DNA of 64,000 nt from Chlamydiales bacterium (GTDB lineage Bacteria > Chlamydiota > Chlamydiia > Chlamydiales > JACKPQ01). A program made the translations under genes and the position numbers. Shown here piece after piece: positions 10,867-38,902 of this stretch (the first letter of the stretch is position 1; every line of letters begins with the position of its first letter). The stretch is taken from positions 98,825 through 162,824 of the forward strand of contig JACKPP010000002.1 in assembly GCA_024233455.1 (NCBI GenBank), written 5' to 3'. Below the pieces are notes generated by a model that did not search any database, was not told where the DNA came from, and saw only the letters and a program-made list of their open reading frames with translations.

Positions 10867-10951
10867 TAAGCGAGCAAGGTCAAGTTAAATAGTATTGTGT
10901 AAATTCTCTTATTTCAAATAGGTTGTCTGTGTTTAATAACTAATTCGCGAG

Positions 10952-10994
10952 CGCCGTTTATCCCGGCCATAAATGGCCAGGTTTTCGGCGTTTT
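10952..10994 (+). terminator. possible intrinsic terminator between convergent recF and pgi
   Basis: A bipartite hairpin: CGCCG(10952-56)...GGCCAT(10965-70) AA ATGGCC(10973-78)...CGGCG(10986-90), followed by TTTT. The 7x7 internal loop makes it weak. Confidence 0.3.
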
Positions 10995-11136
10995 AGTGAT
11001 AAAGCAGCAGAAATGGCAGCAAAGCAAGCATTAAAAGGTCCCAGCAATAGGGCTCAAGCTTCTTTTGTGTCTGAGCTTGATCAATCAGCAGATCATACTC
11101 TTTGGGGCTTAAGTGACTTAATAAACGCTTTGCGCG

Positions 11137-24250: not shown

Positions 24251-26219
24251 AGTGTTGGGTTTCGTACTCATCGAGAAGGATTGGCCGATAAATGCGCTGC
24301 CTATAAAGGCGTTTAAAGAAGGTTTCGTAGCAGTGAACATCACCCAAGAGCTCTTTTACCAGTTCCGGATATTGACCGGCGATGTTGTTTTTTTCATGCG
24401 GGTCGGAAGCTAGATCGTAGAGGGCGATTTCTTTGGTCCCTCTGGTGTAGATCAGCTTGTAGTTATCATAACGACAGCCGAAATAGCCGTGCACATAGGG
24501 ATTGTGGAAGAAGATTTTTTTACCTCGCTTTTTTCGCAAAAGAGAGCTGCCGACGGTATGGTTAAGCCCTTTTAGATTTAGCAGGTCCATCACAGTTGGG
24601 AAGAGATCGATTTGACTTCCTAACTGGTCAATCATTTTTGGTGTTTGGATGCGTCCAGGAGCATGGATCAGACATGGCACATGGATGTTTTCCTCAAATA
24701 ATCCAAATTGGTTGACGATGCTCTGATCGTGCTCTCCCATCGGCTGGCCATGATCTCCTATAATGAATAGAATGGTGTTTTCGGCAAGTCCTTTTTCTTG
24801 GAGGGCTTTGGTTAGCCTACCCAGACACATGTCGCTGTAGTGGAAGGTACGCAGATAGCGGCCATAGTGGGGATTGTCAAACGCTGGTAGTGGTAGCCTG
24901 CGATGTGGCCCCGGCGGATCGATCCATGGATGATGGTTTGAGATGGTAAATAGGGTGCAAAATTGGGGGGTTTGGCGGTTTTTATCAAGGTGGTCGATAG
25001 TGTAATCCATTAGATATTGATCATGAACACCCCAACTAGTGCCGTGAGCTCCCGGAATGGCTTTGATGATTTCTTCAGTACCAGCTAGGTTATCGTAACC
25101 GTGAGAAGAGAGGCATTCTAACTGATTTTCAAAACTCAAATGATTACCGATAAAGTAGTTACACATGTAGCCACTCCGTTTTAAAACATGGGCAATGCTA
25201 ATGAGGGGAAAGCGAGGAACTGATGATGCATCGAAGGTTTCAACATCGGATGGAATACCAAATTGTGAGGCTGTGACCGCACGGCTTGTTTTTACTGAGT
25301 TGGAGTAAAAGTTTTTAAAGCAGATGCCCTCATGGGCTAATCGGTCAAAATTGGGCGTAATGGAATAAGCGCCGCCTAGAATGCCAATATCAGAGGCACG
25401 CCAAGATTCCATAAAAAGAAAGATCACATGGGGCTGTTCAGCAGCTTCGATACGGATATGGCAAGTTTTAACTCCAGTAAAACCGTGAGTATATTTAAGA
25501 ATGGGGTACTCTGGTGTTAGCAGCGTAAAATCTTCTTCATCATTAAAAAAGAGCTGCTTATTAGGCATGAGAAAGTCTTTGGAAAATCGCAATGTCGAAA
25601 ATAAGACGCTAAACCCCTTACAAAGGAGCCATATTTGCTGCATAAGTAGAGTATTAGATGTAGAGTAGGCAATACGTCTGGGCAAAAAAGCATGAGCACC
25701 AACTGAGACAACTGCAAGGGCTAAACCCGTCCACAAAAAAGGACTTGAGAGGATGAATACTGCCATATGGTTTTGTAGGTAGGCAATGGTGGTAAGGTTG
25801 ATGACCAACATTGCAGCGCCAATAATCAAAAATATCCACACTCCTCTGGCTTTAGCTGAATCCCAAAAAGATCTGATATCGCTTAGAAAAGCAAAAAACG
25901 AGACATCAAAGCGCATGGCTGTTTTGTAGAACAAAAAAGCATCAAATATCAAATCGATTTGGACCAGAAAATAGCCAAGGCCTAAGGCCCAAAAAAGAAA
26001 TGGAAAAGCAAATGGAGCATAGGTATTGAGTAGCATAACCAAAAATATGGCCTGCCACGCTAAAAAAGAGTCTTGGATAATGCCTAATCCTGTGATTATT
26101 CTTTTCATTAATAATGACTTACAAATGAGTTTGCGATGAAAAATTGCCAGGCGCACTACAAGTGCGGGAGCAAGTAGTAATAAAAAGAAGTAAACTTTGG
26201 GATACATAAATGGGCTCAT
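24237..26219 (-). CDS. sulfatase-family membrane protein (LtaS/OpgB-type phosphoglycerol or phosphoethanolamine transferase)
   Basis: A multi-TM N-terminal half plus an alkaline-phosphatase-superfamily domain: VIFLFMESWRASD, NFYSNSVKTSRA, IIGDHGQPMGEHD. Its 3' end overlaps the convergent 22247 gene by 14 nt. Confidence 0.8.
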   Translation of the reverse strand: MSPFMYPKVYFFLLLLAPALVVRLAIFHRKLICKSLLMKRIITGLGIIQDSFLAWQAIFLVMLLNTYAPFAFPFLFWALGLGYFLVQIDLIFDAFLFYKTAMRFDVSFFAFLSDIRSFWDSAKARGVWIFLIIGAAMLVINLTTIAYLQNHMAVFILSSPFLWTGLALAVVSVGAHAFLPRRIAYSTSNTLLMQQIWLLCKGFSVLFSTLRFSKDFLMPNKQLFFNDEEDFTLLTPEYPILKYTHGFTGVKTCHIRIEAAEQPHVIFLFMESWRASDIGILGGAYSITPNFDRLAHEGICFKNFYSNSVKTSRAVTASQFGIPSDVETFDASSVPRFPLISIAHVLKRSGYMCNYFIGNHLSFENQLECLSSHGYDNLAGTEEIIKAIPGAHGTSWGVHDQYLMDYTIDHLDKNRQTPQFCTLFTISNHHPWIDPPGPHRRLPLPAFDNPHYGRYLRTFHYSDMCLGRLTKALQEKGLAENTILFIIGDHGQPMGEHDQSIVNQFGLFEENIHVPCLIHAPGRIQTPKMIDQLGSQIDLFPTVMDLLNLKGLNHTVGSSLLRKKRGKKIFFHNPYVHGYFGCRYDNYKLIYTRGTKEIALYDLASDPHEKNNIAGQYPELVKELLGDVHCYETFFKRLYRQRIYRPILLDEYETQHFKQA

Positions 26220-26236
26220 AATTGCTTAATAACAAA

Positions 26237-27583
26237 TTACGAGAAAATACCCAATAAAATAATAATAATAGAAATTGGAGCTATGTATTTTATGCTGTAT
26301 TTTAAATAATCCATAAATACAGAATAGCGACTAGTAAAATCTTCAGCTCCCAAACGTATGTGCGCGTAGGCTTTTTTATAGCCCCAGCGCCAACCGACTA
26401 AAAGCACAGCCGCAAGCCCCCCAACAGGAATTAATACATTAACAGCAAGCGAGGAAATGAGCTCGAAGAGATTTAGGCCAAAAAATTTAATTGTAGACCA
26501 CTGCCCAAAAGCTAGCGCGCTAGGAATCCCAAGTAAAAAAGCTGAAATAGCCGTGGCTAGCACAGCTTTATGGCGCTTCCATTTAAAGCGATCACCCAGA
26601 TAAGCGATCATGGGTTCCATAGCGGAGATTTGCGAAGTAATCGCTGCCATAAAAACTAAAGCAAAAAAACTGACAGCCAATAAGTACCCTCCAGTCACTT
26701 GCGAAAAGACCAGCGGCAGGGTTTCATACATCAAGCTAGGACCTGAATCCGCCTTTAGCCCCACGGAAAAAACGGTCGAAAAGATAGCCATGCCCGCAAG
26801 TAGCGAGATAAAGAGACCAAAAGTGGCAATTGGCAAGCAGGTGCTAGGAACGTTTTCTTTGTCTGAGACGTAGGATCCATATGTTACCATTGTTCCCTGA
26901 CCCAGGCTCAAGGCAAAAAATGCTTGCCCCAAAGCTAACAGGATGGCACTGGGCGAAAGAGCGCTCCATTTTGGGGAGAATAAAAATTGGAGCCCTTCAT
27001 AGGCCCCGCTCATGGTGAGCCCTTTGGCCACAAGGCCCAACAATATTAGAAATAAGAGCGGCATAAGGACTTTGTTCCATGCCTCAATTCCTCGTTGTAC
27101 TCCAGCATACAAAATACCGGCCGATGCGGCCATGAAAAGCAAGTGATAGCCTATGCACCAAAAGCTGGAGCTCGTCAGCTGCAAAAAATGGTTTTCAGCA
27201 CTGGCCACAGTAGAAAAATGAGTGAGTTTTCCTTGTAGTGCTTGAATCAGGTAGCCCAAAGTCCAACCAGAAACAACGCTATAGAAGGAAGCTACAATGA
27301 GACCGGTAAAAATCGTCATGGCCCCCACTTTCTTCCATTTGGAGCTACGTCCTAATTGGTGGAAGGCTCCAGCTGGACTCAAGGCTGTTTTACGACCAAT
27401 GATAATTTCGGATAAAAGGACTGGCAAGCCCACTAAAAACAGACACAAAACATAGACGAGTACAAAGGCTGCTCCCCCGCCCTCGCCTACGATGTAGGGA
27501 AAACGCCAGATATTACCCAATCCTACGGCAGAGCCTACCGCCGCAGCAATAAAACCCAGTCGTGACTTCCACTCAGCGCGCAT
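26237..27583 (-). CDS. sodium-dependent transporter, neurotransmitter:sodium symporter (NSS/SNF) family
   Basis: WKSRLGFIAAAVGSAVGLGNIWRFPYIVGEGGGAAFVLVY is the NSS signature, and the protein has about 11-12 TMs. The start was trimmed to ATG 27583 (MRAEWKSR), which gives an 11-nt overlap with the rlmN stop. Confidence 0.9.
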   Translation of the reverse strand: MRAEWKSRLGFIAAAVGSAVGLGNIWRFPYIVGEGGGAAFVLVYVLCLFLVGLPVLLSEIIIGRKTALSPAGAFHQLGRSSKWKKVGAMTIFTGLIVASFYSVVSGWTLGYLIQALQGKLTHFSTVASAENHFLQLTSSSFWCIGYHLLFMAASAGILYAGVQRGIEAWNKVLMPLLFLILLGLVAKGLTMSGAYEGLQFLFSPKWSALSPSAILLALGQAFFALSLGQGTMVTYGSYVSDKENVPSTCLPIATFGLFISLLAGMAIFSTVFSVGLKADSGPSLMYETLPLVFSQVTGGYLLAVSFFALVFMAAITSQISAMEPMIAYLGDRFKWKRHKAVLATAISAFLLGIPSALAFGQWSTIKFFGLNLFELISSLAVNVLIPVGGLAAVLLVGWRWGYKKAYAHIRLGAEDFTSRYSVFMDYLKYSIKYIAPISIIIILLGIFS

Positions 27584-28697
27584 CTTTCCGGCGCTCTTTA
27601 TGTAGTGTTCTTGGATCCATGTTGAGCTCCCCTTCCCTTTTAGCTGCCAGCTGGCCACATCCAGCGCTGATGTCCTGGCCGCGGCTATAGCGCACCGGTG
27701 CTGGGATCGATCTATGGGTTAGGTAGTTTTGAAAATCGGTGATATGCGCAGTATCAGAAGGTTGCATTTCAACCCCTGGGAAGTGATTGATCGGGATAAG
27801 GTTCACTTTAGCTTTGATGCCATGTAGAAATTTAACGAGCTTTTTAGCATCTTGGATGGAGTCGTTCTCCCCTTTGATCAGCACGTACTCGAAGGTGATG
27901 CCGTATCTTGCCGGTGCCGGATAGCGCATCAAAACCTCTTTCATCTGATCTAGAGGGTATTTTCGCCCGATGGGCATCATTTGACTCCGTTTTTCTTGGT
28001 CAGCAGAGTGGAGTGAGATAGCCAGGCGGACCGGCACATCTTGACCGAGACGCTCAATTTCAGGCAAAAGCCCCGAGGTCGACACAGTGACCTTGGTTTT
28101 TGACAAACCAAAAGCTGCCGGATCAATCATCCGCCGGCACGCCTTTACGACTGCATCGTAATTATCGAGCGGCTCACCCATCCCCATGTAGACCACATTG
28201 CTTACTCGGCGCTCTTTTTTAGCGCTCAAATGGTTTGCCAGCACTAGCTGGTACAAAATCTCACCAGAGCTCAAATTGCGTTTGAGTCCCATTTTGCCTG
28301 TCTGACAAAATGTACAGCCCATTTTACATCCTACCTGGCAACTTAAGCATAGGGTTACGCGGTTTTCGTAGGGCATCAGCACCATTTCAACCAGGAGGTT
28401 ATCCGGGGTTTTAAGCAAGACTTTTTCAGTGCCATCTTTGGAGATCAAGTGGCAGTCGATTTCCATCGGCTCCCAAGTAAAATTTTCTTTTAATACTACC
28501 CGCTTGTCTTTGGATAAATTGGAAAACAGCTCCGGATTTACCACTCCCTTTTGAAAAATCCATTCAAAAATTTGCTTAGCAACAAAACCAGAATAGCCTT
28601 TTTGGGTGCACCAGGTTTTCCACTGATCTATATCAAAGTCCAGCGCTAATGGCTTATTTGTAGTCAAAATATTTAGCATCCACCCATTGTATCCCAT
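27573..28697 (-). CDS. rlmN: 23S rRNA/tRNA adenine-C2 methyltransferase, radical SAM
   Basis: Radical-SAM cluster motif CQVGCKMGCTFCQTG, plus GMGEPLDNY and a C-terminal ISAGCGQL. ATG 28679 is an alternative start. Confidence 0.9.
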   Translation of the reverse strand: MGYNGWMLNILTTNKPLALDFDIDQWKTWCTQKGYSGFVAKQIFEWIFQKGVVNPELFSNLSKDKRVVLKENFTWEPMEIDCHLISKDGTEKVLLKTPDNLLVEMVLMPYENRVTLCLSCQVGCKMGCTFCQTGKMGLKRNLSSGEILYQLVLANHLSAKKERRVSNVVYMGMGEPLDNYDAVVKACRRMIDPAAFGLSKTKVTVSTSGLLPEIERLGQDVPVRLAISLHSADQEKRSQMMPIGRKYPLDQMKEVLMRYPAPARYGITFEYVLIKGENDSIQDAKKLVKFLHGIKAKVNLIPINHFPGVEMQPSDTAHITDFQNYLTHRSIPAPVRYSRGQDISAGCGQLAAKREGELNMDPRTLHKERRKDAR

Positions 28698-28751
28698 TCA
28701 AGGAATTTATCCCAATTGGCAAATACATTTATTTGGAGTATGACTTAAACT

Positions 28752-29141
28752 ATGATGAAATTACCCGTATATCTAACTCGGGTCAGAGCTGGCTTCCCAA
28801 CGCCTAATGAGGGAGAAATCGAAGAAAAGCTCGACCTTAACGAGTATCTCATTCAGCATCCTGCAGCCACATTTTTTGTACGTGTAGAAGGCTCTTCTAT
28901 GATCGATGCAGGTATTACTGAGGGGGATTTACTGATCGTCGACAGGGCTAAACACCCTCAAGATGGCGATGTGATTCTAGCTGTTTTAGACGGCGAATTC
29001 ACGGTTAAGCGTCTATCTAAGCAAGGTAAGCTTTTTTTAGAGCCTGCCAACCAAGATTTTGCTCCCATTGAGATCACTGAAGAAATGGACTTTCAGGTAT
29101 GGGGCGTTGTAACCTATACGGTGCGCAAATGTTCGCGTTAA
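28752..29141 (+). CDS. umuD: translesion polymerase V accessory subunit UmuD (S24 LexA-like self-cleaving peptidase)
   Basis: It aligns by eye along its length with E. coli UmuD as I remember it: [12 protein letters not shown] (cleavage-site region, A-G), [32 protein letters not shown] (Ser nucleophile), GEFTVKRL (Lys). Confidence 0.85.
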
Positions 29142-30295
29142 TCGACTGTAACAGTTTTTTTGCATCCTGTGAGATAGTCTTTCAGCCCAGGCTACAGGGG
29201 AAACCTGTGGTGGTGCTGTCCAATAATGATGGCTGCGTGATTGCAAGGTCCAAAGAAGCCAAAGCTCTCGGCATTCCCATGGGGGCTGCCGCCTTTGAAT
29301 ATGAGCGTTTTTTTGCCCTTCATAAAGTTGAAGTCTTTTCCTCTAATTTTGTGCTCTACGCCGACATGTCCAGACGGGTGATGGAGTCAATTGCCTCTCT
29401 CGGTTACATTCTCGAGCCCTACTCTATTGACGAGACCTTCATTCAGGGCCCAGAAATTGACGCCCACGCTATTAAACAGCGTATCGAGCAGTGGACTGGC
29501 ATCCCCGTTTCAGTGGGCATAGGAGCATCCAAAACCCAAGCTAAAACAGCCAATTACATAGCCAAAAAAAATGGCGGTATCTGGAGATTTAAACCAGAGG
29601 ATTTGGAACATCTTCCAGTCGAAGATATCTGGGGTGTTGGGCGTAAATACGCCCTAAAGCTCAAAAGTTATGGGGTCTATACCGCAGGTAACCTAATTGC
29701 TAAAAATGATCATTGGATTAAAAAACATCTGACTGTCATTGGCCTGCGTATGGTATGGGAGCTACGCGGCACCCCTTGCATTCAAGATTTGCCCAGCCCC
29801 AAAAAAGGCATCGTTGTTTCTCGCTCCTTTGCTAAAGGCGTCACATCTCAAGAAATGCTAGCTGAGGCAATCATGACCTTTGCGGCCAAAGCTGCCCGCA
29901 AGCTGCGCAAAGAAAACTCCCAAACCAAATTTTTACAAGTTTTTACCAACCTGTCGAGCGCCTCCTGCACTTTGCCCCTTGCAACCGATCACAATCCCCT
30001 GCTGATGGCCCACGCCAGACGGCTGCTCAACCAAATCTTTCGACAAGGGGAAATCTATAAACGTGCTGGTGTGCTGCTTTCTGATATCACTGCCGATTCC
30101 CAACTCGATTTGCTGACAGAGTCCAAAGCGTCCTCTCCCCTCATGCCCTTGCTAGATAAAGTGAACCGCAAGCATGGTAAAGAAATGCTCTTCTACGCGG
30201 GGCAAGGCACCACGCAGCGCTGGCAAAAAACACCCCGGCACAGGTCACCCAGATACACCACCGATTGGAACGACATTCCCCGTATCAAAAAATAA
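29129..30295 (+). CDS. umuC: translesion DNA polymerase V catalytic subunit UmuC (Y-family)
   Basis: [52 protein letters not shown] is a near-canonical UmuC N-terminus. The start was trimmed to ATG 29129, giving a 13-nt overlap with umuD. Confidence 0.9.
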
Positions 30296-30362
30296 CTGAC
30301 CTTGGCTATGCATATTTCTTATGCCAGAGCTACCCAAAGTCGAAACGGTTATTCAGCATCTG
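30282..30362. repeat. direct repeat, left copy (umuC 3' end, spacer and first ~13 codons of mutM)
   Basis: 81 nt, gtatcaaaaaataactgaccttggctatgcatatttcttatgccagagctacccaaagtcgaaacggttattcagcatctg. Against 32958-33037 I count 78 identical positions, 2 substitutions and 1 one-base indel (hand alignment). Confidence 0.85.
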
Positions 30363-30410
30363 CGTACGCCACACTCAAAATGCTACAAAGCAAAAGAATG
30401 TAATATGTGA
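30321..30410 (+). pseudogene. mutM 5' ghost (29 codons: MPELPKVETVIQHL then unrelated sequence and stop)
   Basis: It lies within and just beyond the left repeat copy. The first 14 codons match the real mutM start at 32996 (MPELPKVETIIQQL), then homology ends and TGA follows at 30408-30410. Confidence 0.6.
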
Positions 30411-30531
30411 TTTTTATATCGGCCTTTTGTAGAAACTCAGTATTGCCAAATCATAACACATATCTGGATTTGCTTATTTTTAACCATTGATATATGGTCG
30501 CTTGTAAATTTTTTAGCTGAGAGATACTAAG

Positions 30532-32907
30532 ATGCAAGCTGTGATTTTAGGAATAGGCGCAATGTTGGTTATGGCCCATGGTGTAGCAAGAGATCCACAG
30601 ACGTGTCTTTGGTATCCAAGATCCGCAGATGCGTGGGAAGAAGCTTTGCCAGTTGGAAATGGTCGATTAGGGGCTATGGTTCACGGCGGTGTCCAAAGAG
30701 AATTGATTCAACTGAATGAAGATTCGATGTGGTCAGGCAAACCCCATGATTGGAATAACCCCGATTTTTACGATGGATTACAAGAAGTTAAATGTTTGCT
30801 TGCTGCCGGCGATTATGTAAAAGCGCACAAGGTGGCCGAAGAGAAACTGATTTGCAAAGGCGGGGGATCGCATTATTGCAAAACAGCTCAATGTGATTAT
30901 GGCTCATATCAGACATTGGGAGATTTAACTTTAACTTTTCAACATAAGGGAGAAGTCACAGAGTATTCTCGGGAGTTGGATTTAAAAACAGCGATTGCAT
31001 CCGTTGATTATACAGTAGACGGAGTTAGGTTTCACAGAAAGATATTTTCTAGCTTTCCCGATCAAGCCATTGTTGTGCGCTTAACAGCGAGCCAAAATGA
31101 TGCGATCAATTTCGATGTTGCAATCAATCGGTCCGAAAATGGCCTGACAGCAGCCTCTAGTGAGGCGCTACTGGAGATGACCGGTAATCTTTATAAAGAG
31201 GGTATTGATTATGCAGCAGCAGTTCAGGTTGTGTATTGCGATGGATCTGTTAAGACATCTGATAATGCTATTTCAGTTAGAGATGCCACTGATGTTACAA
31301 TTGTAGTTGTAGCGAGCACCACTTTTCGTGAAAAGCAGCCTCAAAAGCACAATCTACAGGGCTTAAAACGGCTGAAAAAAAGGACTTTCGAGCAATTATT
31401 AGACAGACATGTTGAAGATTACCAAAAATTGTTTGATCGCTGCATCTTAAATCTAGACACAAGTGCTATCTCTATGCAGCCGACTTCAGGAAGGCTTTGG
31501 TCATTAAGAGAGGGGGGCTATGATCCTAGCATTTTTGCGCTGTATTTTAACTATGGAAGGTATTTGCTGCTCGCTTCTTCACGTAGAGAATCGCTGCCCG
31601 CCAATTTGCAGGGTATTTGGTCTGATAAAATTTTAACGCCTTGGTGTGGAGATTTTCATCTCAATATTAATTTACAGATGAACTATTGGCCGGCAGAACT
31701 GACAAATCTTTCAGAATGCTCTGAACCTTTAGATCGGTATATTTTTGACCTTGAAAAGACTGGCACTGCGACAGCAAAAGAGATGTATAACGCTAGAGGT
31801 TGGGTTGCTCATCATATCTCCAATATTTGGGGTTTTTCAGCGCCAGCTGAGCATCCTAGCTGGGGTTTGTTTCCCGGTGGGGCTGCTTGGCTTTGTAGAC
31901 ATTTCTGGGATAAGTATCTTTTTAATCAAGATATAGCATATTTAAAAAAGGTTTATCCGACGCTAAAAAATGCAGCGCTCTTTTATTTAGATACTTTGTA
32001 CAAAGACGAAAAAACTCAGTATCTTCTGCCAGTTCCGTCGAATTCCCCGGAAAATGTTTACGTTTTAAATCAAGATAAACAAGGCTATTTGAGTAGAGCT
32101 GCTACTGTTCAGCTCTGTTTAATTAGAGATATCTTTACGATTGTAAAACAGGCGTCAAGCATTTTGTGTCTAGATCATGACGATGTCGTTCAGTTTACTA
32201 AAGCTTTGTCGCAACTTTACCCATATGGCGTGGATAAAAATGGACTTTTGAAGGAGTACATGGAAGATGTTGAAAGGCCTTTTGAAGGACACAGGCATAT
32301 GTCCCACTTAATTGGACTATTTCCAGGTTGCGATCCAAAAATCATGAAGGATCCTGAGCTTTTCAACGCTGCTAAGCAATCGGTTATCGCGCGTTGGAAG
32401 AAGGGAGTAGGCCAAACAGGCTGGAATTTAGGTTGGACGATTAATCTTTTTGCAAGACTTAAAGAAACAAAAAGAGCTTACCAAGCTTTGCAGACGATGC
32501 TGGGTTGTTCAACGCTTCCAAACTTTTTTGACAACCATCCACCTTTTCAAATTGATGGGAATTTTGGAGGAACAGCAGGTATTGCTGAAATGCTGCTTCA
32601 AAGCCATACAGATGAAATTTTATTGCTTCCAGCTTTGCCCAAATCTTGGAAAAATGGTTCGGTTAGGGGCTTAAGAGCACGAGGTGGGCTGGAAGTTTCT
32701 ATTACTTGGAAAGATTCCCATATTGAATTTATTGACTTACTTGCTCATGCGGATAATCATTTTAACGTGCGCTTGCCTAGTGATCATCATGTCGCCCAAC
32801 TCACTCTGAATGAGGAAAATATTGATTTGAATGATGCTTTAAGACTTGAGCTCGACCTCAAGAAAGGTGATCATATCCTAGCTGTATTTGAGCCATCTAG
32901 AACTTAG
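30532..32907 (+). CDS. glycoside hydrolase family 95-like protein (alpha-L-fucosidase type), secreted
   Basis: Signal peptide MQAVILGIGAMLVMAHG. The N-terminal block LWYPRSADAWEEALPVGNGRLGAMVHGGVQRELIQLNEDSMWSG is the characteristic GH95 N-domain pattern. Further blocks: LQGIWSD...PWCGDFHLNINLQMNYWPAE, PSNSPEN, FFDNHPPFQIDGNFGGTAGIAEMLLQS. Length 791 aa. Confidence 0.82.
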   Translation: MQAVILGIGAMLVMAHGVARDPQTCLWYPRSADAWEEALPVGNGRLGAMVHGGVQRELIQLNEDSMWSGKPHDWNNPDFYDGLQEVKCLLAAGDYVKAHKVAEEKLICKGGGSHYCKTAQCDYGSYQTLGDLTLTFQHKGEVTEYSRELDLKTAIASVDYTVDGVRFHRKIFSSFPDQAIVVRLTASQNDAINFDVAINRSENGLTAASSEALLEMTGNLYKEGIDYAAAVQVVYCDGSVKTSDNAISVRDATDVTIVVVASTTFREKQPQKHNLQGLKRLKKRTFEQLLDRHVEDYQKLFDRCILNLDTSAISMQPTSGRLWSLREGGYDPSIFALYFNYGRYLLLASSRRESLPANLQGIWSDKILTPWCGDFHLNINLQMNYWPAELTNLSECSEPLDRYIFDLEKTGTATAKEMYNARGWVAHHISNIWGFSAPAEHPSWGLFPGGAAWLCRHFWDKYLFNQDIAYLKKVYPTLKNAALFYLDTLYKDEKTQYLLPVPSNSPENVYVLNQDKQGYLSRAATVQLCLIRDIFTIVKQASSILCLDHDDVVQFTKALSQLYPYGVDKNGLLKEYMEDVERPFEGHRHMSHLIGLFPGCDPKIMKDPELFNAAKQSVIARWKKGVGQTGWNLGWTINLFARLKETKRAYQALQTMLGCSTLPNFFDNHPPFQIDGNFGGTAGIAEMLLQSHTDEILLLPALPKSWKNGSVRGLRARGGLEVSITWKDSHIEFIDLLAHADNHFNVRLPSDHHVAQLTLNEENIDLNDALRLELDLKKGDHILAVFEPSRT

Positions 32908-32957
32908 ATAATTAGCAAATAGGCACAGCGCTTCAGTTAGAGCCTTTGCTATTTTCT

Positions 32958-33037
32958 GTATCAAAAAATAACTGACCTTGGCTATGCTATTTCTTATGCC
33001 AGAGCTACCCAAAGTCGAAACGATTATTCAGCAGCTG
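32958..33037. repeat. direct repeat, right copy (orphan umuC tail, spacer and real mutM start)
   Basis: 80 nt, gtatcaaaaaataactgaccttggctatgctatttcttatgccagagctacccaaagtcgaaacgattattcagcagctg. It lies 2,676 bp downstream of the left copy. Confidence 0.85.
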
Positions 33038-33772
33038 AAACGCTCCGATATTCTGGACCATAAGGTCCAATCGATCGAGGTTTTTTGGCCTAAATCATTT
33101 GTCGGTCAGCACCAGAAATTGGTAAATGTTGCCATTACTTCTCTTGAGCGACATGGAAAATATTTCCTCTTCGGCCTTTCCAATGGTCAAACGCTAGCCG
33201 TGCATTTGGGAATGAGCGGCTGTTTTAGATTCGAGCCTACCGATCACACCCGTATTTCTATCACTTTTATCAATGGAATAGAGCTTTATTATTCTGACCC
33301 GCGTAAATTTGGTCGATTTACTCTGGTAGACTGCTCCAGCGAAATAACTAAACGTCTGGGACCTGATGCCTTGGAAATTTCGCAAGAAGAGCTGCAAAAG
33401 TGTCTGCAGTCCAATAACCGCCTCAAGCCTCTGCTGCTAGATCAAGCCTGTATTGCAGGTCTTGGAAATATCTATGTCGATGAGGCCCTATGGGAAGCTG
33501 AGATTCATCCCACCTGCAGTGCCAAGCAGCTGAGCACAAAACAAGTGCAAGCTTTGCATGCGGCGATAAAGAAAACATTGCAAGACGGGATTAAGCATGG
33601 CCTCACTAATATTGAAAAAGACGATGCGCTTTACGGTAAACCGGAAAAATTCCGTCACCTTTATCGCGTTTATGGACGGGCAGGCAAACCCTGCCCTCGC
33701 TGCCACGCTCCCCTTCAACGGTTGCTGCTTGTGGGACGCACGACCGTCATCTGCCCTAACTGCCAAGCTTAA
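32996..33772 (+). CDS. mutM: formamidopyrimidine-DNA glycosylase
   Basis: MPELPKVET has the catalytic Pro2 and Glu3. The H2TH region is LLDQACIAGLGNIYVDEALW. The C-terminal zinc finger is CPRCHAPL...VICPNCQ. The track start at 32978 is TTG; ATG 32996 is the family-typical start. Confidence 0.9.
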   Translation: MPELPKVETIIQQLKRSDILDHKVQSIEVFWPKSFVGQHQKLVNVAITSLERHGKYFLFGLSNGQTLAVHLGMSGCFRFEPTDHTRISITFINGIELYYSDPRKFGRFTLVDCSSEITKRLGPDALEISQEELQKCLQSNNRLKPLLLDQACIAGLGNIYVDEALWEAEIHPTCSAKQLSTKQVQALHAAIKKTLQDGIKHGLTNIEKDDALYGKPEKFRHLYRVYGRAGKPCPRCHAPLQRLLLVGRTTVICPNCQA

Positions 33773-33780
33773 ACATAATT

Positions 33781-33883
33781 TGGCCGTATTTCGTAATTTT
33801 GGCCGTATTATGCGCTAAAATTAGGAAAAAGGGGGGATTTTGGCCGTATTTATGGATCAAAAAAAACAAAAAATGGCCGTATT
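33781..33883 (+). repeat. four direct copies of TGGCCGTATT in 103 bp (candidate regulator-binding iterons)
   Basis: Exact 10-mers sit at 33781-90, 33800-09, 33841-50 and 33874-83, with extended consensus (A/T)TTTGGCCGTATT(T/A). They lie in the 258-bp spacer between mutM and the amino-acid permease gene. Confidence 0.8.
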
Positions 33884-34030
33884 TCAGATTCAGCATTTGT
33901 AAGCCGAACCGTGCAAGTAACGTGCCCTCTTCAAAGAAAACATCCGGAAAAAGAGGACATGTCCTAAAGACAATCTCACTTCTATATGAAGCTTGGATCA
34001 AAATAGCCCGGTAGTGTATAGTTGCTTGCT

Positions 34031-35425
34031 ATGGTGAAATCTAAACGTACGATCAATATTTTTACGCTGTCAATGATCAACGTTGCAGCTATTTGCAGCA
34101 TTAAAAACTGGCCTTTAACTGCCGAATACGGCTTTTCATCCCTGTTTTTTTTCACGATCGCTGCTCTATTATTTTTTATTCCCGTATCACTAGTGTCGGC
34201 AGAACTGGCTACTGGCTGGCCGGAGCGGGGAGGTATTTTTGTCTGGGTCAAAGAAGCGCTGGGGCATAAGTTTGGTTTTTTAGCCGTATGGCTCCTATGG
34301 ATCGAAAATGTGGTCTGGTACCCTACGATTTTATCGTTTATTGGCGCTACGATTGCCTACAGCTTTATGCCCAGCCTTGCGGCAAGCAAGGTATATATGG
34401 TCATTGTGATTTTAGCTGCTTTTTGGGGCGCTACAATTGTGAATTTAAGAGGCATGAAAACGTCTGGTTTGATCAGCTCTGTAGGAGTGATTTTCGGTAC
34501 AATAGTTCCAGGTGTTGTGATCATCGTTCTGGGTCTTAGCTGGTGGCTGATGGGTAAACCCATTGAAATCACTATGAGCTGGGATGCGTTGATTCCCAAT
34601 CTAACTTCAGGCTCGCAGCTATCGCTCATGGCAGGCGTTTTGCTGGGTTTTGCTGGGATGGAAATGTCGGCAGTACACGCAAGGGATGTGATCAATCCCC
34701 AAAAGAACTACCCCAAAGCGATTTTTTTGTCGGCAGTGATTATTTTGGTCCTATCCGTACTTGGAACCCTGGCCATTGCTTTTGTGATTCCTCAAGATAA
34801 AATCAGCTTGGTAGCTGGTGGCATGGAAGCGATTTCCCACTTCATGAATGCCTATAATTTAGGCTGGGCCGTGCCGATATTTTCTATATTGATAGCTCTT
34901 GGTGCGCTAGGCGGTATGAGCACTTGGACTGCAGGTCCAAGTAAAGGTCTTTTAGCTGCAGCTCAAAGCGGCGAGTTCCCCCCTATTTTGCACCGCGTCA
35001 ATAAAAACGATATGCCTGTAGCCCTACTTGTGATGCAAGGGACGATTGTTTCTTTGCTTTCTTTAGTATTTTTACTGATGCCCGATGTAAGTAGCTCTTT
35101 TTGGATGCTGCTGGTGCTCTCTTCCCAACTTTATATCGTGATGTATTTGCTGATGTTTATTTCGGCCATTGTACTACGTTATAAAAAGCCCAATGTAAAA
35201 AGAGAGTACAAGATTCCAGGTGGTAATTTTGGCATGTGGATCGTTGCTGGAATTGGGCTAGCCGCATCTTTAGCTTCAATGATTGTAGGCTTTTTTCCGC
35301 CCGAGCAGCTCAACACCGGCAGCGTGCTTTTCTACGAAGCTTTTTTGGTAGGAGGCATTATCGTAATGTCTGCCATTCCTTTTATTATTCTGCAATTTAA
35401 AAAGCCCAGCTGGGATATTCCTTAA
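34031..35425 (+). CDS. APC-superfamily amino-acid permease (GadC/glutamate:GABA-antiporter-like)
   Basis: About 12 TMs. The N-terminal pattern KRTINIFTLSMINVAAICSIKNWPLTAEYGFSSLFFF..FIPVSLVSAELATGWPERGGIFVWV resembles GadC-type antiporters. The track start at 34022 is TTG; the ATG is at 34031. Confidence 0.8.
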   Translation: MVKSKRTINIFTLSMINVAAICSIKNWPLTAEYGFSSLFFFTIAALLFFIPVSLVSAELATGWPERGGIFVWVKEALGHKFGFLAVWLLWIENVVWYPTILSFIGATIAYSFMPSLAASKVYMVIVILAAFWGATIVNLRGMKTSGLISSVGVIFGTIVPGVVIIVLGLSWWLMGKPIEITMSWDALIPNLTSGSQLSLMAGVLLGFAGMEMSAVHARDVINPQKNYPKAIFLSAVIILVLSVLGTLAIAFVIPQDKISLVAGGMEAISHFMNAYNLGWAVPIFSILIALGALGGMSTWTAGPSKGLLAAAQSGEFPPILHRVNKNDMPVALLVMQGTIVSLLSLVFLLMPDVSSSFWMLLVLSSQLYIVMYLLMFISAIVLRYKKPNVKREYKIPGGNFGMWIVAGIGLAASLASMIVGFFPPEQLNTGSVLFYEAFLVGGIIVMSAIPFIILQFKKPSWDIP

Positions 35426-35605
35426 CCTTAACCTGAGTTATGGGTTTATATCATTCATCTTCAGGCATCTTAGGCGCCATCTTGCACCCTTTTTGTGCTC
35501 ATCTATAGCTTTTTGGCTATGGAATCGCAAAAAATGTCACAATCTGTCACCTAATCTACTCTGAATCTAAACAATCAAAACCCATAACTCAGGTTAACCT
35601 TAAGG
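35420..35605. repeat. 186-bp element bounded by 28-nt terminal inverted repeats (MITE-like or long-stem RNA)
   Basis: IR-L 35420-35447 is CCTTAACCTTAACCTGAGTTATGGGTTT. The reverse complement of IR-R 35578-35605 is CCTTAAGGTTAACCTGAGTTATGGGTTT. That is 26/28 matches, with the inner 20 nt perfect. The 130-nt interior holds CATCTT three times (35456, 35466, 35478) and TGTCAC twice. The arms include the stop codons of both convergent genes. Confidence 0.6.
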
Positions 35606-37891
35606 ACACGTGCCAGCATCGACAAACGTCACGTTGCCAGTTGTGGTGATACCACCTGGGAAAATGTTGCTTTGCGTGATAGCTTCAGAAGATGGCGCTG
35701 TGCTTGATTCCATTTGCAAACTAGAGGTGCCTCCAGTTGCTGATAGGTCAAGCGCTCCATTAGTCACATTTCCGGCGACTTTAGCGCACGTCATTGCCGA
35801 TGCAGTAACAGTAAATTTCAGCGCTTCAGTGTTTTGAGTTTGCATAACATTGTTCAGCACTTCAGCAAGCATTAAAGCGGTATTGGAGTTATTTAAACTA
35901 TTTGGATTCACCGACAAACATTTGTTGTTGTATAGATTTATCCTACTCATTCCACCCGTAGGACTCAATTGATCAAAGTTAAACGCAGCAACCGTTTGAC
36001 TCATAATCAAATTAGAATCGGCGATCAATGTATTATCATAGGTAACAGCGCCTGCACCTGGATTTAGATCTAGCGTAGCGAAACTGGCTCGACTAAACAT
36101 CACATTTTTACGAAATGTTAGTTGCATTTCAGCAGCTCCAGATGGAAATAACTCAATACATCCGCTCCCTAGAGTGTTCACCATGTGATTGTTCTCAAAT
36201 AGCCCGCGCATATCGGAAGCAGTTACTATATAGAACACTGGGCTAGATTGAGAAAACGTATTAGCTATAAACTGAACGCTAAGATGCGTATTAGCACTTT
36301 GCGCAATATTAAGGGCTGATTCAGTAAAACCAGAACTATTGGGTTGTGATAGGTTGTTATGCCCATAAACGCTCATGGCAGACGTGCCAGCAACGGTCAA
36401 AAAAAGCGTGGGCTTATCAGTATTGTCGATAAGTGTGTTGCCGGCCATTGCAGCACCAAGTTGCGCAGCATTGGTCGTATGGAATTCTAAACTAGCGCCA
36501 CCAGAGGTGTTACGCACACTATTGTCATTGACCACAGCTTGGTAGGTGTTGGCAGTTGACTCAACATTGATACCAATCCCAGTTAGATTATAGAGGGTAT
36601 TATTTATCAGAATACTTTGTCCGTCAATGGCATTCACTAAATTAATACCCACACCGGTGCTGCTAATCACGTTATCGGCGATAATGTAAGAGCCGCCTGA
36701 AACGCCAGTGTTATCGATGCCGTTATCTGTTGAGGTCGAAACGATATTCAAACCAGCAACCGTGTTGCTAGTTGACAGATTGACAGTGGGTCCTCCTGTA
36801 TTGCTAATTAAAGGTCGATTAGAAGAGAGGGCTGGCACCACAAAACCACCTAAGTCCATGGATGCACCTTCGCCATGAAAGCGTTGCTTGGCTTGAAGGG
36901 TTATTCCTGCATTCATACCGGTAGACGTACCGTCACCATTAAAGACGTAGATCACATCGCCGGGAGCTGAATTTGCCTGCGCCAATGCTAAGGTAGGATA
37001 AGGGCTTTCAAAAGTGCCGTTAGAGCTAGATGTATTCCTAACAAAGACAATGTTGAATGGAGGGATTTCGCGCACATTTTTAGATTGGACCGGAATGATT
37101 TCTTGCCGGTAGGGCAGTTGGTTACGTGCAAGGCACAAAGAATTAGCCGTGTCTTTGCGTTTGCGAAATGGAAAATTCACCGCAAAAGCGCCTTGCACTG
37201 TCCACTTGAAGATTTTATCATAGGTGGCAAGAGCGGTCATTTTATAGCTGTCAACAAGATTGAGCTCAACTCTTCCTTGACCACCAGCCGCTTTTCCTAG
37301 TTCTGCGCCATTCACGGTTTTTTTAAATAGGTAGTAAGGACCAAGGGCGCCATAGAGATCCCAATTGCCACAGCGTTTTCCAATAGGCATTGGAAAGCCA
37401 AGTTCCCCTTCAATCATGGGAAGCGCAGCTTTTAGGCGTCGATTAAAGATCGCACTATGGCCAGAAAATTTAACGAATTGGGGTGTGTTTTCATACTGAG
37501 TGTTGGCAATAGGACCGTAACCATTGATACGTGCATCTAAGTACTTCCAGAGAAACTCTAGTCCAGCGCCAAGTTGATGGGGATTGAGGTTATTGGCTTC
37601 TCGAAAGTCGTAGTAGAAGTTACCCCCAAGGGTAAAGTCAGACCAGTTATAGCGCAGACCGAGGCCGGCATTTGTAGCAAACTTGCCATTGTCGAAGACA
37701 TGCCCACGCAAATCTAAAAAAGGCAAAAGGTTGTTTTTCCACTTGGGCGCTAAAAAAAGTTCAGCTGTGGTGTAACCGGTGTTGTAGCCAATTCCATTAT
37801 GCTCGCGGTGCTTAAGAACAGCTTGTGAGCTGCTGGGATCTGCAGCAAGAGTCAGTGTGCCCAGCGTTAGGGCGGCAAGTGTTTTCTTCAT
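35600..37891 (-). CDS. inverse autotransporter (intimin/invasin-type N-terminal beta-barrel) with parallel beta-helix passenger
   Basis: Signal peptide MKKTLAALTLGTLTLAA. The barrel block NAGLGLRYNW..LGGNFYYDFRE...QLGAGLEFLWKYLDARINGYGPI fits the IAT beta-domain pattern N.GlG.R...lG.N.fYD....G.G.E....l..NgY.P. The C-terminal ~480 aa are N/T/G-rich ~22-25-aa repeats (..VAGLNIVSTSTDNGIDNTG..IADNVISSTGVGINLVN..LINNTLYNLTGIGINVES..). The track start is GTG 37897; the ATG is at 37891. Confidence 0.72.
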   Translation of the reverse strand: MKKTLAALTLGTLTLAADPSSSQAVLKHREHNGIGYNTGYTTAELFLAPKWKNNLLPFLDLRGHVFDNGKFATNAGLGLRYNWSDFTLGGNFYYDFREANNLNPHQLGAGLEFLWKYLDARINGYGPIANTQYENTPQFVKFSGHSAIFNRRLKAALPMIEGELGFPMPIGKRCGNWDLYGALGPYYLFKKTVNGAELGKAAGGQGRVELNLVDSYKMTALATYDKIFKWTVQGAFAVNFPFRKRKDTANSLCLARNQLPYRQEIIPVQSKNVREIPPFNIVFVRNTSSSNGTFESPYPTLALAQANSAPGDVIYVFNGDGTSTGMNAGITLQAKQRFHGEGASMDLGGFVVPALSSNRPLISNTGGPTVNLSTSNTVAGLNIVSTSTDNGIDNTGVSGGSYIIADNVISSTGVGINLVNAIDGQSILINNTLYNLTGIGINVESTANTYQAVVNDNSVRNTSGGASLEFHTTNAAQLGAAMAGNTLIDNTDKPTLFLTVAGTSAMSVYGHNNLSQPNSSGFTESALNIAQSANTHLSVQFIANTFSQSSPVFYIVTASDMRGLFENNHMVNTLGSGCIELFPSGAAEMQLTFRKNVMFSRASFATLDLNPGAGAVTYDNTLIADSNLIMSQTVAAFNFDQLSPTGGMSRINLYNNKCLSVNPNSLNNSNTALMLAEVLNNVMQTQNTEALKFTVTASAMTCAKVAGNVTNGALDLSATGGTSSLQMESSTAPSSEAITQSNIFPGGITTTGNVTFVDAGTCP

Positions 37892-37918
37892 ATTCACTTA
37901 TATAAAAACAGCTGGAAA

Positions 37919-38902
37919 TTAAAGCAACCACCAAGTCGCTAGACTAAGGTAAATAGCCGTTGTGAAAACATCGGCAAACATTAAAACAACAGGACCTGCG
38001 GCTACCTTGGGATCCCAACTGCGTGCGTGCAAGATGACTGGAACTGCAGCCCCAATTGTTGCAGTTAAAATCACCGATAGAAAAATACCAGAGCCAATGG
38101 TAATTGCCGGTCCATAACCCCCAGACCAAAAGGTGGAGATTATCCCAACCACAAGGGCGCAAGTAAACGAAATAAGGACCAGAGCTCGACTCTCGTAAAT
38201 GATCCGACGCATAAAAAATTTCCAGTCGAAATGCGTATGGCGCCTGAGTATTTGTAAACTTTGAGTCATTGATTGCATAGAGATCGATTCGGAAAGAGTT
38301 AAAATAAGCGGAATAAACATAGCTAGGATGATAACTTGAGCTAAAACTGCTTCGTAATATCTAGAGATGACCGCGCAAGCAATACCACCAAACATATTGC
38401 AAAAAATCCAAGGCATGCGCGTGCGGTAGCTTTGCCAAGGGGTCATCTTGCGCCCCTCTTCTAGGTACACCCCGAGCATCTGAAAGATATCACCTCGTCT
38501 TTGGGAATGGGCGATATCTAAATTTTCTTCAAAGTAGAGCTGCACATCGACAATGCCTAGAAATTTTCCAGCTTCATCGACCACTGGGAAAGCAAGCAAA
38601 TGGTGTTTTCCAAAATGCTCCATGGCCTCTTGCAGCGACTGGGTGTCTTTTAGTGCCACAAAATCTGTATCCATCGCTTTTGAAATCTGCAAGTCAGACG
38701 GCTTTAGAAGCAAAGTCCGAGAAGAAATAACCCCTTTAAGTACGCCGGCGTCATCTACAACATAAAAGTAGACGATTTTGTCATGGATATCTTTTTGACG
38801 CAAAATATCTAGCGCTTCATCAATCGTGTGATCGGGATGCACCGTTGTATGGACATCCGTAATAAAGTTCTTAATCGGCTGAGATAGATCACGGTGCGAC
38901 AT
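37919..38902 (-). CDS. MgtE-like divalent-cation transporter lacking the N-terminal MgtE_N domain (CBS pair plus 5-TM domain)
   Basis: CBS-pair sequence (..VYFYVVDDAGVLKGVISSRTLL.., ..LLAFPVVDEAGKFLGIVDV..) is followed by an MgtE-type TM domain (..LAMFIPLILTLSESISMQS.., ..DPKVAAGPVVLMFADVFT..). At 327 aa it is about 120 aa shorter than canonical MgtE. Confidence 0.78.
   Translation of the reverse strand: MSHRDLSQPIKNFITDVHTTVHPDHTIDEALDILRQKDIHDKIVYFYVVDDAGVLKGVISSRTLLLKPSDLQISKAMDTDFVALKDTQSLQEAMEHFGKHHLLAFPVVDEAGKFLGIVDVQLYFEENLDIAHSQRRGDIFQMLGVYLEEGRKMTPWQSYRTRMPWIFCNMFGGIACAVISRYYEAVLAQVIILAMFIPLILTLSESISMQSMTQSLQILRRHTHFDWKFFMRRIIYESRALVLISFTCALVVGIISTFWSGGYGPAITIGSGIFLSVILTATIGAAVPVILHARSWDPKVAAGPVVLMFADVFTTAIYLSLATWWLL

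Follow-up and report, generated by a model that had tools for sequence, protein, structure and literature searches.

The locus described here raises the question of how a single gene for a predicted exported glycosidase came to lie between umuC and mutM in a chlamydial genome, and where that gene came from. It is located in a 64,000-nucleotide stretch of DNA from Chlamydiales bacterium (assembly GCA_024233455.1, contig JACKPP010000002.1, positions 98,825 to 162,824), which we refer to as the window and to which all positions below refer unless another contig is named. A segment of 2,595 bp (positions 30363 to 32957), which contains a single intact gene for a protein of glycoside hydrolase family 95 (GH95), separates the two genes and is bracketed by two copies of the umuC-mutM junction. 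We consider it probable that this segment represents a recent and lineage-specific insertion into the junction, possibly of the Campbell type, that the donor was a chlamydia, and that the insert forms the newest layer of a hotspot downstream of umuC.

The duplicated junction of umuC and mutM

The insert is flanked by a direct repeat of 81 nucleotides, here called J_L (30282 to 30362) and J_R (32958 to 33037), the copies of which differ by 2 substitutions and 1 indel. An earlier note on this DNA had counted 78 identical positions, 2 substitutions and 1 indel by hand in a repeat of about 81 bp, and the same figures were obtained in a BLASTN comparison of the metagenome contig L001 with the window, in which J_L and J_R cross-matched with 96.3% identity, 2 mismatches and 1 gap (E 7e-32). 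A repeat scan reported 2 blocks, one of 37 nucleotides with 92% identity (30275 to 30311 and 32951 to 32987, spacing 2676) and one of 50 nucleotides with 96% identity (30313 to 30362 and 32988 to 33037, spacing 2675). Since the spacings differ by a single base, the 2 blocks constitute one repeat with a single-base indel, an extra A at position 30312. No third copy was found within the 64-kb window.

Each copy contains the umuC tail with its stop codon, a spacer of 25 nucleotides (24 in J_R) and the first 14 codons of mutM (42 nucleotides), which can be read directly from the sequence and is close to the composition given in the earlier note (about 13 mutM codons). The 5' end of the repeat falls within a CGT codon of umuC (GT ATC AAA AAA TAA), and on the 3' side the repeat ends abruptly with no further similarity. 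The 7 bases located immediately 5' of the repeat match at 4 positions (ATTCCCC versus ATTTTCT, with three C/T differences), and the similarity is gone beyond them; this short stretch is probably the ragged edge of the repeat. A GGCACAG 7-mer further upstream was considered as an extension of the repeat and was found to be out of register and at chance level. We also rejected the idea that larger duplicates of umuC and mutM have decayed in place, as the similarity does not extend past the 81 nucleotides and the ragged 7 bases.

The features of the junction and the insert are as follows:

29099 to 30295, + strand: umuC, for a Y-family DNA polymerase (Pfam IMS, IMS_C, IMS_HHH and DUF4113), the native 3' end of which is kept by J_L; gene callers place the start at 29129, which gives 388 amino acids
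30282 to 30362, + strand: J_L, the left copy of the repeat, with the umuC tail and stop, the 25-nucleotide spacer and 14 mutM codons
30321 to 30410, + strand: mutM 5' ghost, an open reading frame (ORF) of 29 codons with MPELPKVETVIQHL followed by unrelated sequence and no similarity to mutM past codon 14
30363 to 30531, + strand: leader of the insert, 169 nucleotides, non-coding and foreign
30532 to 32907, + strand: GH95 gene, 791 amino acids, for a predicted exported alpha-L-fucosidase
32908 to 32957, + strand: trailer of the insert, 50 nucleotides, in which the terminator scan calls no terminator
32958 to 33037, + strand: J_R, the right copy of the repeat, with an orphan umuC tail and stop, the 24-nucleotide spacer and the true mutM start
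32996 to 33772, + strand: mutM (fpg), 258 amino acids, intact (Pfam Fapy_DNA_glyco, H2TH and zf-FPG)

The left copy is thus joined to the real umuC and yields only the 29-codon ghost, whereas the right copy carries an orphan umuC tail and the start of the intact Fpg/MutM protein, and the GH95 gene with its own leader is the sole gene between them; the earlier note had described the arrangement in these same terms. Each repeat copy holds the ends of both genes, and therefore the umuC-mutM junction must formerly have been uninterrupted, whatever other contigs may show.

The structure recurs in metagenome contigs from other sources. Contig L001 (JGI 3300010349; 7,465 nucleotides) is 99.97% identical to positions 26477 to 33941, has the same gene order, and covers J_L and J_R, which differ from each other at the same three positions, and contig L032 (JGI 3300009779; 1,956 nucleotides) is 100% identical and spans the right copy. 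An NCBI contig of 1,831 bp appears to carry both a UmuC fragment and an N-terminal GH95 fragment, judging from the matching size listed for the two fragments. A scan of metagenome contigs for exact matches to a 27-nucleotide core of the repeat identified L032 again and no further alleles.

An apparent empty site was identified in L036, a Logan contig of 1,491 bp from run SRR23867504, which was found via a MutM variant (P0370) with 96% amino acid identity. The order in L036 is the umuC 3' end (...DIPRIKK*), a 25-nucleotide spacer, mutM, an array of the motif TGGCCGTATT and the N-terminus of a Fic protein, so that umuC and mutM are adjacent with a single junction copy and no GH95 gene between them. 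Identity to the window amounts to 98.9% in its umuC flank and 94.1% in its mutM flank. The earlier note had proposed that the two genes were once adjacent and were then split by an insertion, and had expected adjacency and a single junction at related loci, which is the state seen in L036.

At the indel, the junction of L036 has the state of J_L, and at both substituted positions it has that of J_R. With L036 as the reference, J_L has 2 derived substitutions, both of them in the dead part of mutM, and J_R has one derived deletion of 1 nucleotide in the spacer, so that the derived changes of each copy fall in its non-functional part. L036 and the window diverge by 1.1% from the 3' end of umuC through the junction to about nucleotide 220 of mutM, and by 7.2% further to the right. 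The change point was placed near position 33216 (approximately 621 in L036), within mutM and about 180 nucleotides to the right of the repeat (Fisher p = 5e-8 for the best split). This jump in divergence indicates that homologous exchange between strains has made the locus a mosaic. At the point of insertion, the common ancestry of the filled and empty alleles is very recent, and the event can be dated to about 1% flank divergence, a time scale with which the three differences between the 81-nucleotide copies are compatible.

Routes of insertion

The architecture would be accounted for if a circular DNA with the same segment of about 81 nucleotides had recombined with the chromosomal junction in a single reciprocal crossover, for which the homologous recombination functions of the host would suffice. 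The integration would have duplicated 81 nucleotides of the target. On the left, umuC would thereby retain its native 3' end, followed by a dead mutM start of 29 codons as a by-product; on the right, mutM would still have its original spacer, start codon and N-terminus, with an orphan umuC tail in front of it as the second by-product. The earlier note had suggested such a Campbell-type crossover. The architecture fits this suggestion, but a one-step duplicative insertion fits it too and the three differences do not discriminate between them, and we therefore favour the single crossover only tentatively, at somewhat below an even chance.

As in known cases of Campbell-type integration, the insert is located between direct repeats of its target with both flanking genes intact, neither a recombinase nor inverted repeats nor a short target-site duplication is present, and the event is reversible by recombination between the repeats, with an apparent empty allele represented by the single copy in L036. 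Homologous exchange is moreover evident at this locus in the population, from the mosaic of L036 and the window. Unlike in the classical cases, the homology here amounts to only 81 nucleotides, and the scheme presupposes a circle that already held the exact junction. In line with the earlier note, which had reported no integrase or insertion sequence (IS), we found no integrase or transposase Pfam domains in the ORFs of at least 150 amino acids scanned between 11 and 56 kb of the window, and no inverted repeats pairing the insert ends in the repeat scan.

Several points weigh against an insertion of the Campbell type from a chlamydial donor. Among the loci fetched, there was no contig with a trailer-junction-leader arrangement and no donor locus with the junction segment next to the leader or trailer. 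A circle carrying the exact 81-nucleotide junction requires an earlier illegitimate event, and the crossover explains the spread of the insert better than its origin. Plain drift after the duplication would explain the distribution of the three differences equally well. The empty site is a single short-read contig of 1.5 kb whose junction consists of the 5' part of J_L and the 3' part of J_R, and a de Bruijn path through a shared 33-mer, or a precise excision by J_L x J_R recombination, would give the L036 sequence. Taxonomic labels are attached to only two members of the GH95 clade described below, no close copy of the gene was found on PLSDB plasmids at the protein or DNA level (best match about 42% amino acid identity, none chlamydial), and the signal peptide call is based only on visual inspection and hydropathy, for a protein that lacks the basic n-region of its relatives.

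We considered the pattern of the three differences as a test of a crossover against drift and discarded it, as half of all random assignments of the differences fit the Campbell scheme and selection predicts the same pattern. The pattern does not discriminate, since it is expected alike from drift, from a crossover with a diverged donor and from excision in the L036 lineage.

A possible but less likely route is an illegitimate insertion in one step, in which linear foreign DNA was captured by two non-homologous or microhomology-mediated joins located 81 nucleotides apart. The duplication would then be made by the insertion itself, either through a template switch with its return point 81 nucleotides upstream or through filling in of a staggered break, and the origin of the insert would be explained with no need for the junction to be present in the donor beforehand. 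The sharp boundaries of the repeat at arbitrary positions, inside a umuC codon and after mutM codon 14, are in agreement with this route, as are the lack of any recombinase or inverted repeat, the differences between the copies, which fit drift after the event, and the imperfect match of 4 in 7 bases at the right join (ATTCCCC versus ATTTTCT), which is of a kind seen at microhomology joins. However, the microhomologies are weak and statistically similar to chance, the left join is not evaluable without the donor sequence, and it is homologous recombination that is evident at the locus. To our knowledge, no such 81-nucleotide duplicative insertion has been described for chlamydiae, which also counts against a one-step event.

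Integrase-driven islands are typically bounded by direct repeats that duplicate the end of a gene and leave the target gene intact, and the repeats at this locus could in principle represent the attL and attR attachment sites of a miniature element that was mobilised in trans and carried a replacement 5' end for mutM. The preservation of mutM and the presence of several different single-gene units at the same spot in related genomes are consistent with site-specific integration. We nevertheless consider it very unlikely, since neither the insert nor the ORFs scanned in the surrounding 45 kb or so encode an integrase, the repeat includes a umuC tail that such an element has no reason to carry, and 81 nucleotides of identity with arbitrary ends are unlike a defined core site. 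Furthermore, no comparable repeats were found around the other occupants of this position, a Fic gene in contig L030 and a DUF1016-type ORF in contig L025, which argues against a common att site.

The comparison with known mobile systems gave a similar picture. The insert shares with integrase islands and prophages with long att segments the duplication of a gene terminus that keeps the target functional and the variable presence among strains, but here there is no integrase and no tRNA target, the cargo is a single gene of 2.6 kb, the repeat also holds the end of the upstream gene, and the other cassettes at the hotspot are without such repeats. Like an integron array, the locus has single-gene units added serially next to a fixed platform, with the GH95 gene nearest to umuC, followed by mutM and fic. 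Unlike in integrons, there is no IntI, the cassettes have their own leaders and the only repeats are the duplicated target. No attC-like palindromes were detected in an inverted-repeat scan of the insert ends, a scan which did not include a search with an attC model. Finally, an IS element or transposon would be expected to have terminal inverted repeats, a transposase and a duplication of 2 to 14 bp rather than 81 nucleotides, and the insert has neither the repeats nor the transposase. The insert falls outside the definitions of IS elements and transposons, integrase islands and integron cassettes, and its signature is that of a classical insertion-duplication.

It may also be asked whether the GH95 gene is ancestral at the locus and the empty site secondary, either by deletion through J_L x J_R recombination or by mis-assembly. 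The junction of L036 is composed exactly of J_L in its 5' part and J_R in its 3' part, as a crossover or a path through the 33-mer would produce, and the codon usage of the GH95 gene is host-like. Yet the presence of both gene ends in the repeat demands an earlier uninterrupted junction whatever the nature of L036, relatives with 65% to 77% UmuC identity have neither the GH95 gene nor mutM at this position, members of the GH95 clade are found in unrelated neighbourhoods, and the GC content at third codon positions (GC3) of the gene is low for the host. As for mis-assembly, a de Bruijn contig normally ends at a repeat with two entries and two exits instead of passing through it, and for this reason we regard L036 as very likely a genuine empty site. 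Overall, we give an ancestral GH95 gene only a very slim chance.

The chance that the duplicated junction is an assembly artefact of the source genome is negligible: although the source appears to be metagenome-assembled (a 593-kb contig, with cluster members labelled as metagenome-assembled genomes, MAGs), the copies differ at three positions, the same structure is present in two other metagenome contigs with 99.97% to 100% identity, one of 7.5 kb across both copies with the same differences and one across the right copy, and the 1,831-bp NCBI contig apparently links the UmuC and GH95 fragments.

The GH95 protein and its clade

The earlier note had assigned the gene to GH95 and had named a profile match as the check, and all three profiles of the family matched near full-length in the expected three-domain architecture: PF14498 (Glyco_hyd_65N_2, residues 26 to 267, 1e-70), PF22124 (Glyco_hydro_95_cat, residues 286 to 688, 2e-153) and PF21307 (Glyco_hydro_95_C, residues 690 to 779, 1.5e-20). 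Relatives among the protein structures are 7KMQ, 2RDY, 4UFC, 8ZBV, 7ZNZ and 2EAB. The protein has the same N-terminal beta, (alpha/alpha)6 catalytic and C-terminal beta domains as AfcA of Bifidobacterium bifidum (2EAB), the Xanthomonas enzyme (7KMQ), BH0842 (2RDY) and BACOVA_03438 (4UFC), to which it is strongly similar over its full length (E 1e-162 to 1e-93), and the catalytic motifs H-x-N-x-N, SPE and QIDGN are conserved in it.

The catalytic residues of AfcA are Asn421 and Asn423 on the base side, Glu566 as the acid and Asp766, and the mechanism is inverting (PMC10154630). The FHLNIN motif of the window protein aligned with FHMNVN of AfcA, such that H376, N378 and N380 correspond to H419, N421 and N423, while E507 and D675 were mapped to E566 and D766 from coordinate offsets rather than from a printed alignment. 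Among 121 aligned sequences, N380 and E507 (in SPE) were invariant, D675 (in QIDGN) was present in 120, with one gap, and position 378 was Asn in 112 and Asp in 9. E507 and D675 also aligned in 7KMQ and 2RDY, and D675 in 4UFC. From alignment and coordinates taken together, the GH95 catalytic apparatus is conserved in the protein.

The fucosidases AfcA and 8ZBV likewise have a histidine at the position of H376, whereas 4UFC, an L-galactosidase, as well as 7KMQ and 2RDY have threonine. According to work on BACOVA_03438, histidine rather than threonine at the position of His419 in AfcA reportedly favours fucose over L-galactose. The cargo apparently encodes an active GH95 alpha-L-fucosidase, as predicted from sequence features. 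All members of the clade have a hydrophobic N-terminus of approximately 17 to 22 residues in front of a conserved DPQxxLWY motif. The signal-peptide-like leader noted earlier is therefore present and conserved, and it would be consistent with export of the enzyme through the Sec pathway.

The closest GH95 homologues were 61% to 72% identical to the window protein, and the next tier was at most 49% identical. A neighbour-joining tree of 57 sequences placed the window protein in a clade of 12 sequences with 59% to 96% identity within the clade and at most 49% to sequences outside it (bootstrap support 100/100). Within the clade, the window protein grouped with P0001 with 100/100 support, and the other ten, including both labelled sequences, grouped with 99/100 support. 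Two members are from MAGs of Rhabdochlamydiaceae, one of them on a contig that also encodes a TLC ATP/ADP translocase. The earlier note had expected a placement among non-chlamydial GH95 sequences, which was not borne out: the protein belongs to a fully supported clade with proteins labelled as Rhabdochlamydiaceae. Compared with the characterized GH95 enzymes, the window gene differs in belonging to a separate clade, to date encountered only on chlamydial or unlabelled metagenomic contigs, in being solitary rather than part of a polysaccharide-utilisation locus, and in being known here from its sequence alone.

The members of the clade were located in five different and unrelated gene neighbourhoods. 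The GC3 value of the window gene (0.346) is inside the range of the clade (0.31 to 0.41) and below the mean of 0.438 for the host, as calculated for the window (sd 0.048, z = -1.9). The insert as a whole has a GC content of 40.8%, versus 44.4% for the window, and so the suggestion in the earlier note that it is AT-richer was borne out, but the deviation is modest, and the synonymous codon choice of the gene is not deviant (z about 0). The clade, the neighbourhoods and the composition together indicate an accessory gene that moves among chlamydial genomes. Since the gene belongs to a chlamydia-restricted clade, the donor was most likely another chlamydia and not a free-living glycan degrader. 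The leader and trailer of the insert, when compared with the flanks of the GH95 genes in the relatives and with the rest of the window, gave chance-level matches only.

Two of the neighbourhoods deserve mention. In L005, which encodes the closest relative (72% identity), the GH95 gene is followed at 3338 to 3640 by a gene for a GH35 beta-galactosidase with a hydrophobic N-terminal leader, as judged by eye, which suggests a small glycan-trimming gene pair. In L002, a contig of 97 kb, the GH95 gene (10001 to 12343) has a GC content of 41%, compared with 50% in the surrounding 20 kb, and the neighbouring genes (for an RND pump and GatA/B) are often split into fragments; the gene looks foreign there too, or else the contig is rich in errors.

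The literature searched contained no paper that links GH95 or fucosidases to chlamydiae, and a review of the family mentions Chlamydiae solely within the name of the PVC superphylum (PMC10154630).

The region downstream of umuC in relatives

The closest relatives of the UmuC protein were 65% to 77% identical and include proteins labelled as Chlamydiales or Chlamydiia bacterium; the 90% cluster of UmuC also has a member with the label "MAG: Chlamydiia bacterium". Simkania, Simkaniaceae and Parachlamydiaceae are represented among the more distant relatives. The intracellular lifestyle of the bacterium is presumed from this chlamydial affiliation. A scan of a genome collection with UmuC returned only loci from Bacteroidota and Saccharibacteria, with 36% to 48% identity, and reached neither the species of the window nor its relatives. 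The contigs of the relatives are syntenic with the window, with genes for the sulfatase, the SNF transporter, UmuDC, the permease, an inverse-autotransporter-like protein, MgtE, a methyltransferase, GlmS and a NUDIX protein. The genes and sequences that frame the junction in the window are:

27573 to 28697, - strand: rlmN (Pfam)
28752 to 29141, + strand: umuD (Peptidase_S24, Pfam PF00717, 5e-30), the first gene of the umuDC pair on the left flank
33777 to 34021, + strand: ancestral umuC-downstream sequence, with four TGGCCGTATT motifs and a probable decayed fic remnant, upstream of the permease gene
34022 to 35425, + strand: amino-acid permease gene (Pfam AA_permease_2, 1e-69), the conserved right-hand anchor of the hotspot

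A promoter and terminator scan of 28.6 to 34.1 kb was uninformative, with counts equal to the shuffled expectation.

The umuD gene is located upstream of umuC in all relatives compared, and the homology to umuC of the window extends as far as the stop codon and no further. Beyond this stop, the relatives differ:

L027 and L028 (UmuC 65% identical): the permease gene directly
L026 (UmuC 70% identical): a 258-bp spacer with GGCCGT motifs
L030 (UmuC 75% identical): a TGGCCGTATT array and a gene for a Fic protein of 438 amino acids
L025 (UmuC 77% identical): a DUF1016-type ORF

The permease gene follows after the short spacer or cassette in L026 and L030. None of these relatives has the GH95 gene at this position, and it is therefore not ancestral at the locus; the 3' flank of umuC is a variable hotspot with multiple states.

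Also mutM is probably an earlier single-gene acquisition. The sequence located after the mutM stop in the window matches positions 1590 to 1686 of L030, located after its umuC stop, with 72.6% identity over 106 nucleotides (E 3e-12), and sequence of the L030 post-umuC type follows the mutM stop in both the window and L036. The best MutM homologue outside the species is only 43% to 45% identical, as compared to 65% to 77% for the UmuC relatives in the same database, and mutM is absent from this position in the more distant relatives. Its placement and the lack of close homologues indicate that mutM itself was added, in this lineage, between umuC and the region upstream of fic. Its arrival appears to have changed the C-terminus of UmuC from ...PRI* to ...PRIKK*.

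Four exact copies of TGGCCGTATT are present in the 64-kb window, all of them between 33781 and 33883 in an array that spans 33777 to 33885. Arrays of the motif are also found in L030 (1565 to 1690), L036 (1185 to 1310) and L026 (9163 to 9244). The array in the relatives is positioned upstream of and inside the start of the Fic-family gene and is conserved at 70% to 77% UmuC identity, and its layout looks like that of an operator or iteron array for a winged helix-turn-helix Fic protein. The fic gene is intact in L030 and its N-terminal part is present in L036, whereas the window contains a probable remnant (33849 to 34021) whose first 11 or so codons match the Fic N-terminus in L036 and L030 before a premature stop; its last 30 or so nucleotides are 77% identical to the 3' end of the L030 fic gene over 31 nucleotides, which is at chance level (E = 2.7). 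By eye, the spacer of L026 appears to hold a similar remnant and that of L027 none. Read from the order of these elements, the layering would be that mutM was added first, that the GH95 gene was then inserted between umuC and mutM, and that fic has decayed in the window.

A more general explanation is that the umuC stop is a hotspot for gene capture without a recombinase, where fic, DUF1016, mutM and GH95 genes have been stacked with the newest next to umuC by break repair or template switching at the operon for a translesion polymerase, and that the 81-nucleotide duplication is the footprint of this process. We consider this improbable. If true, it would mean that obligate intracellular bacteria gain accessory genes without the machinery of mobile elements, in this case a secreted fucosidase for host glycans.

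Other differences and candidate acquisitions were observed in the surroundings. In the window and in L025, rlmN separates umuD from the SNF transporter gene; it is absent from there in L026 and L027, which represents a second change in gene order, on the other side of umuDC. The gene at 47438 to 48904 encodes a protein of 488 amino acids that consists almost wholly of ankyrin repeats (Pfam Ank, 2e-91) and has the lowest GC3 value in the window (0.299); it is possibly another acquired gene, for a eukaryote-like candidate effector. Two large proteins with weak IAT_beta matches (35600 to 37897, 3e-6, and 38889 to 40460, 4e-12) flank the gene for MgtE, and the position of this pair is conserved in L026 and L027. 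A sulfatase of 660 amino acids (24237 to 26219; Pfam Sulfatase, 5e-51, and SGSH_C) adjoins the SNF transporter in all relatives, and together with the GH95 enzyme it could have a bearing on the use of sulfated and fucosylated host glycans.

The insertion described here is a real and well-resolved gain of a gene at the strain level and a fairly ordinary recent case. It does not overturn current understanding, as both the enzyme family and the insertion-duplication architecture are well known. The mechanisms by which chlamydiae and other obligate intracellular bacteria gain genes are, however, poorly documented at base-pair resolution, and this locus offers the filled allele together with an apparent empty one and the exact duplication of the target. 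The cargo also draws attention to a chlamydia-restricted GH95 clade, so far undescribed, whose proteins have signal-like leaders. Along with the GH95 gene located beside a GH35 gene in one relative, this hints that some environmental chlamydiae trim fucosylated glycans of their hosts or of the environment.

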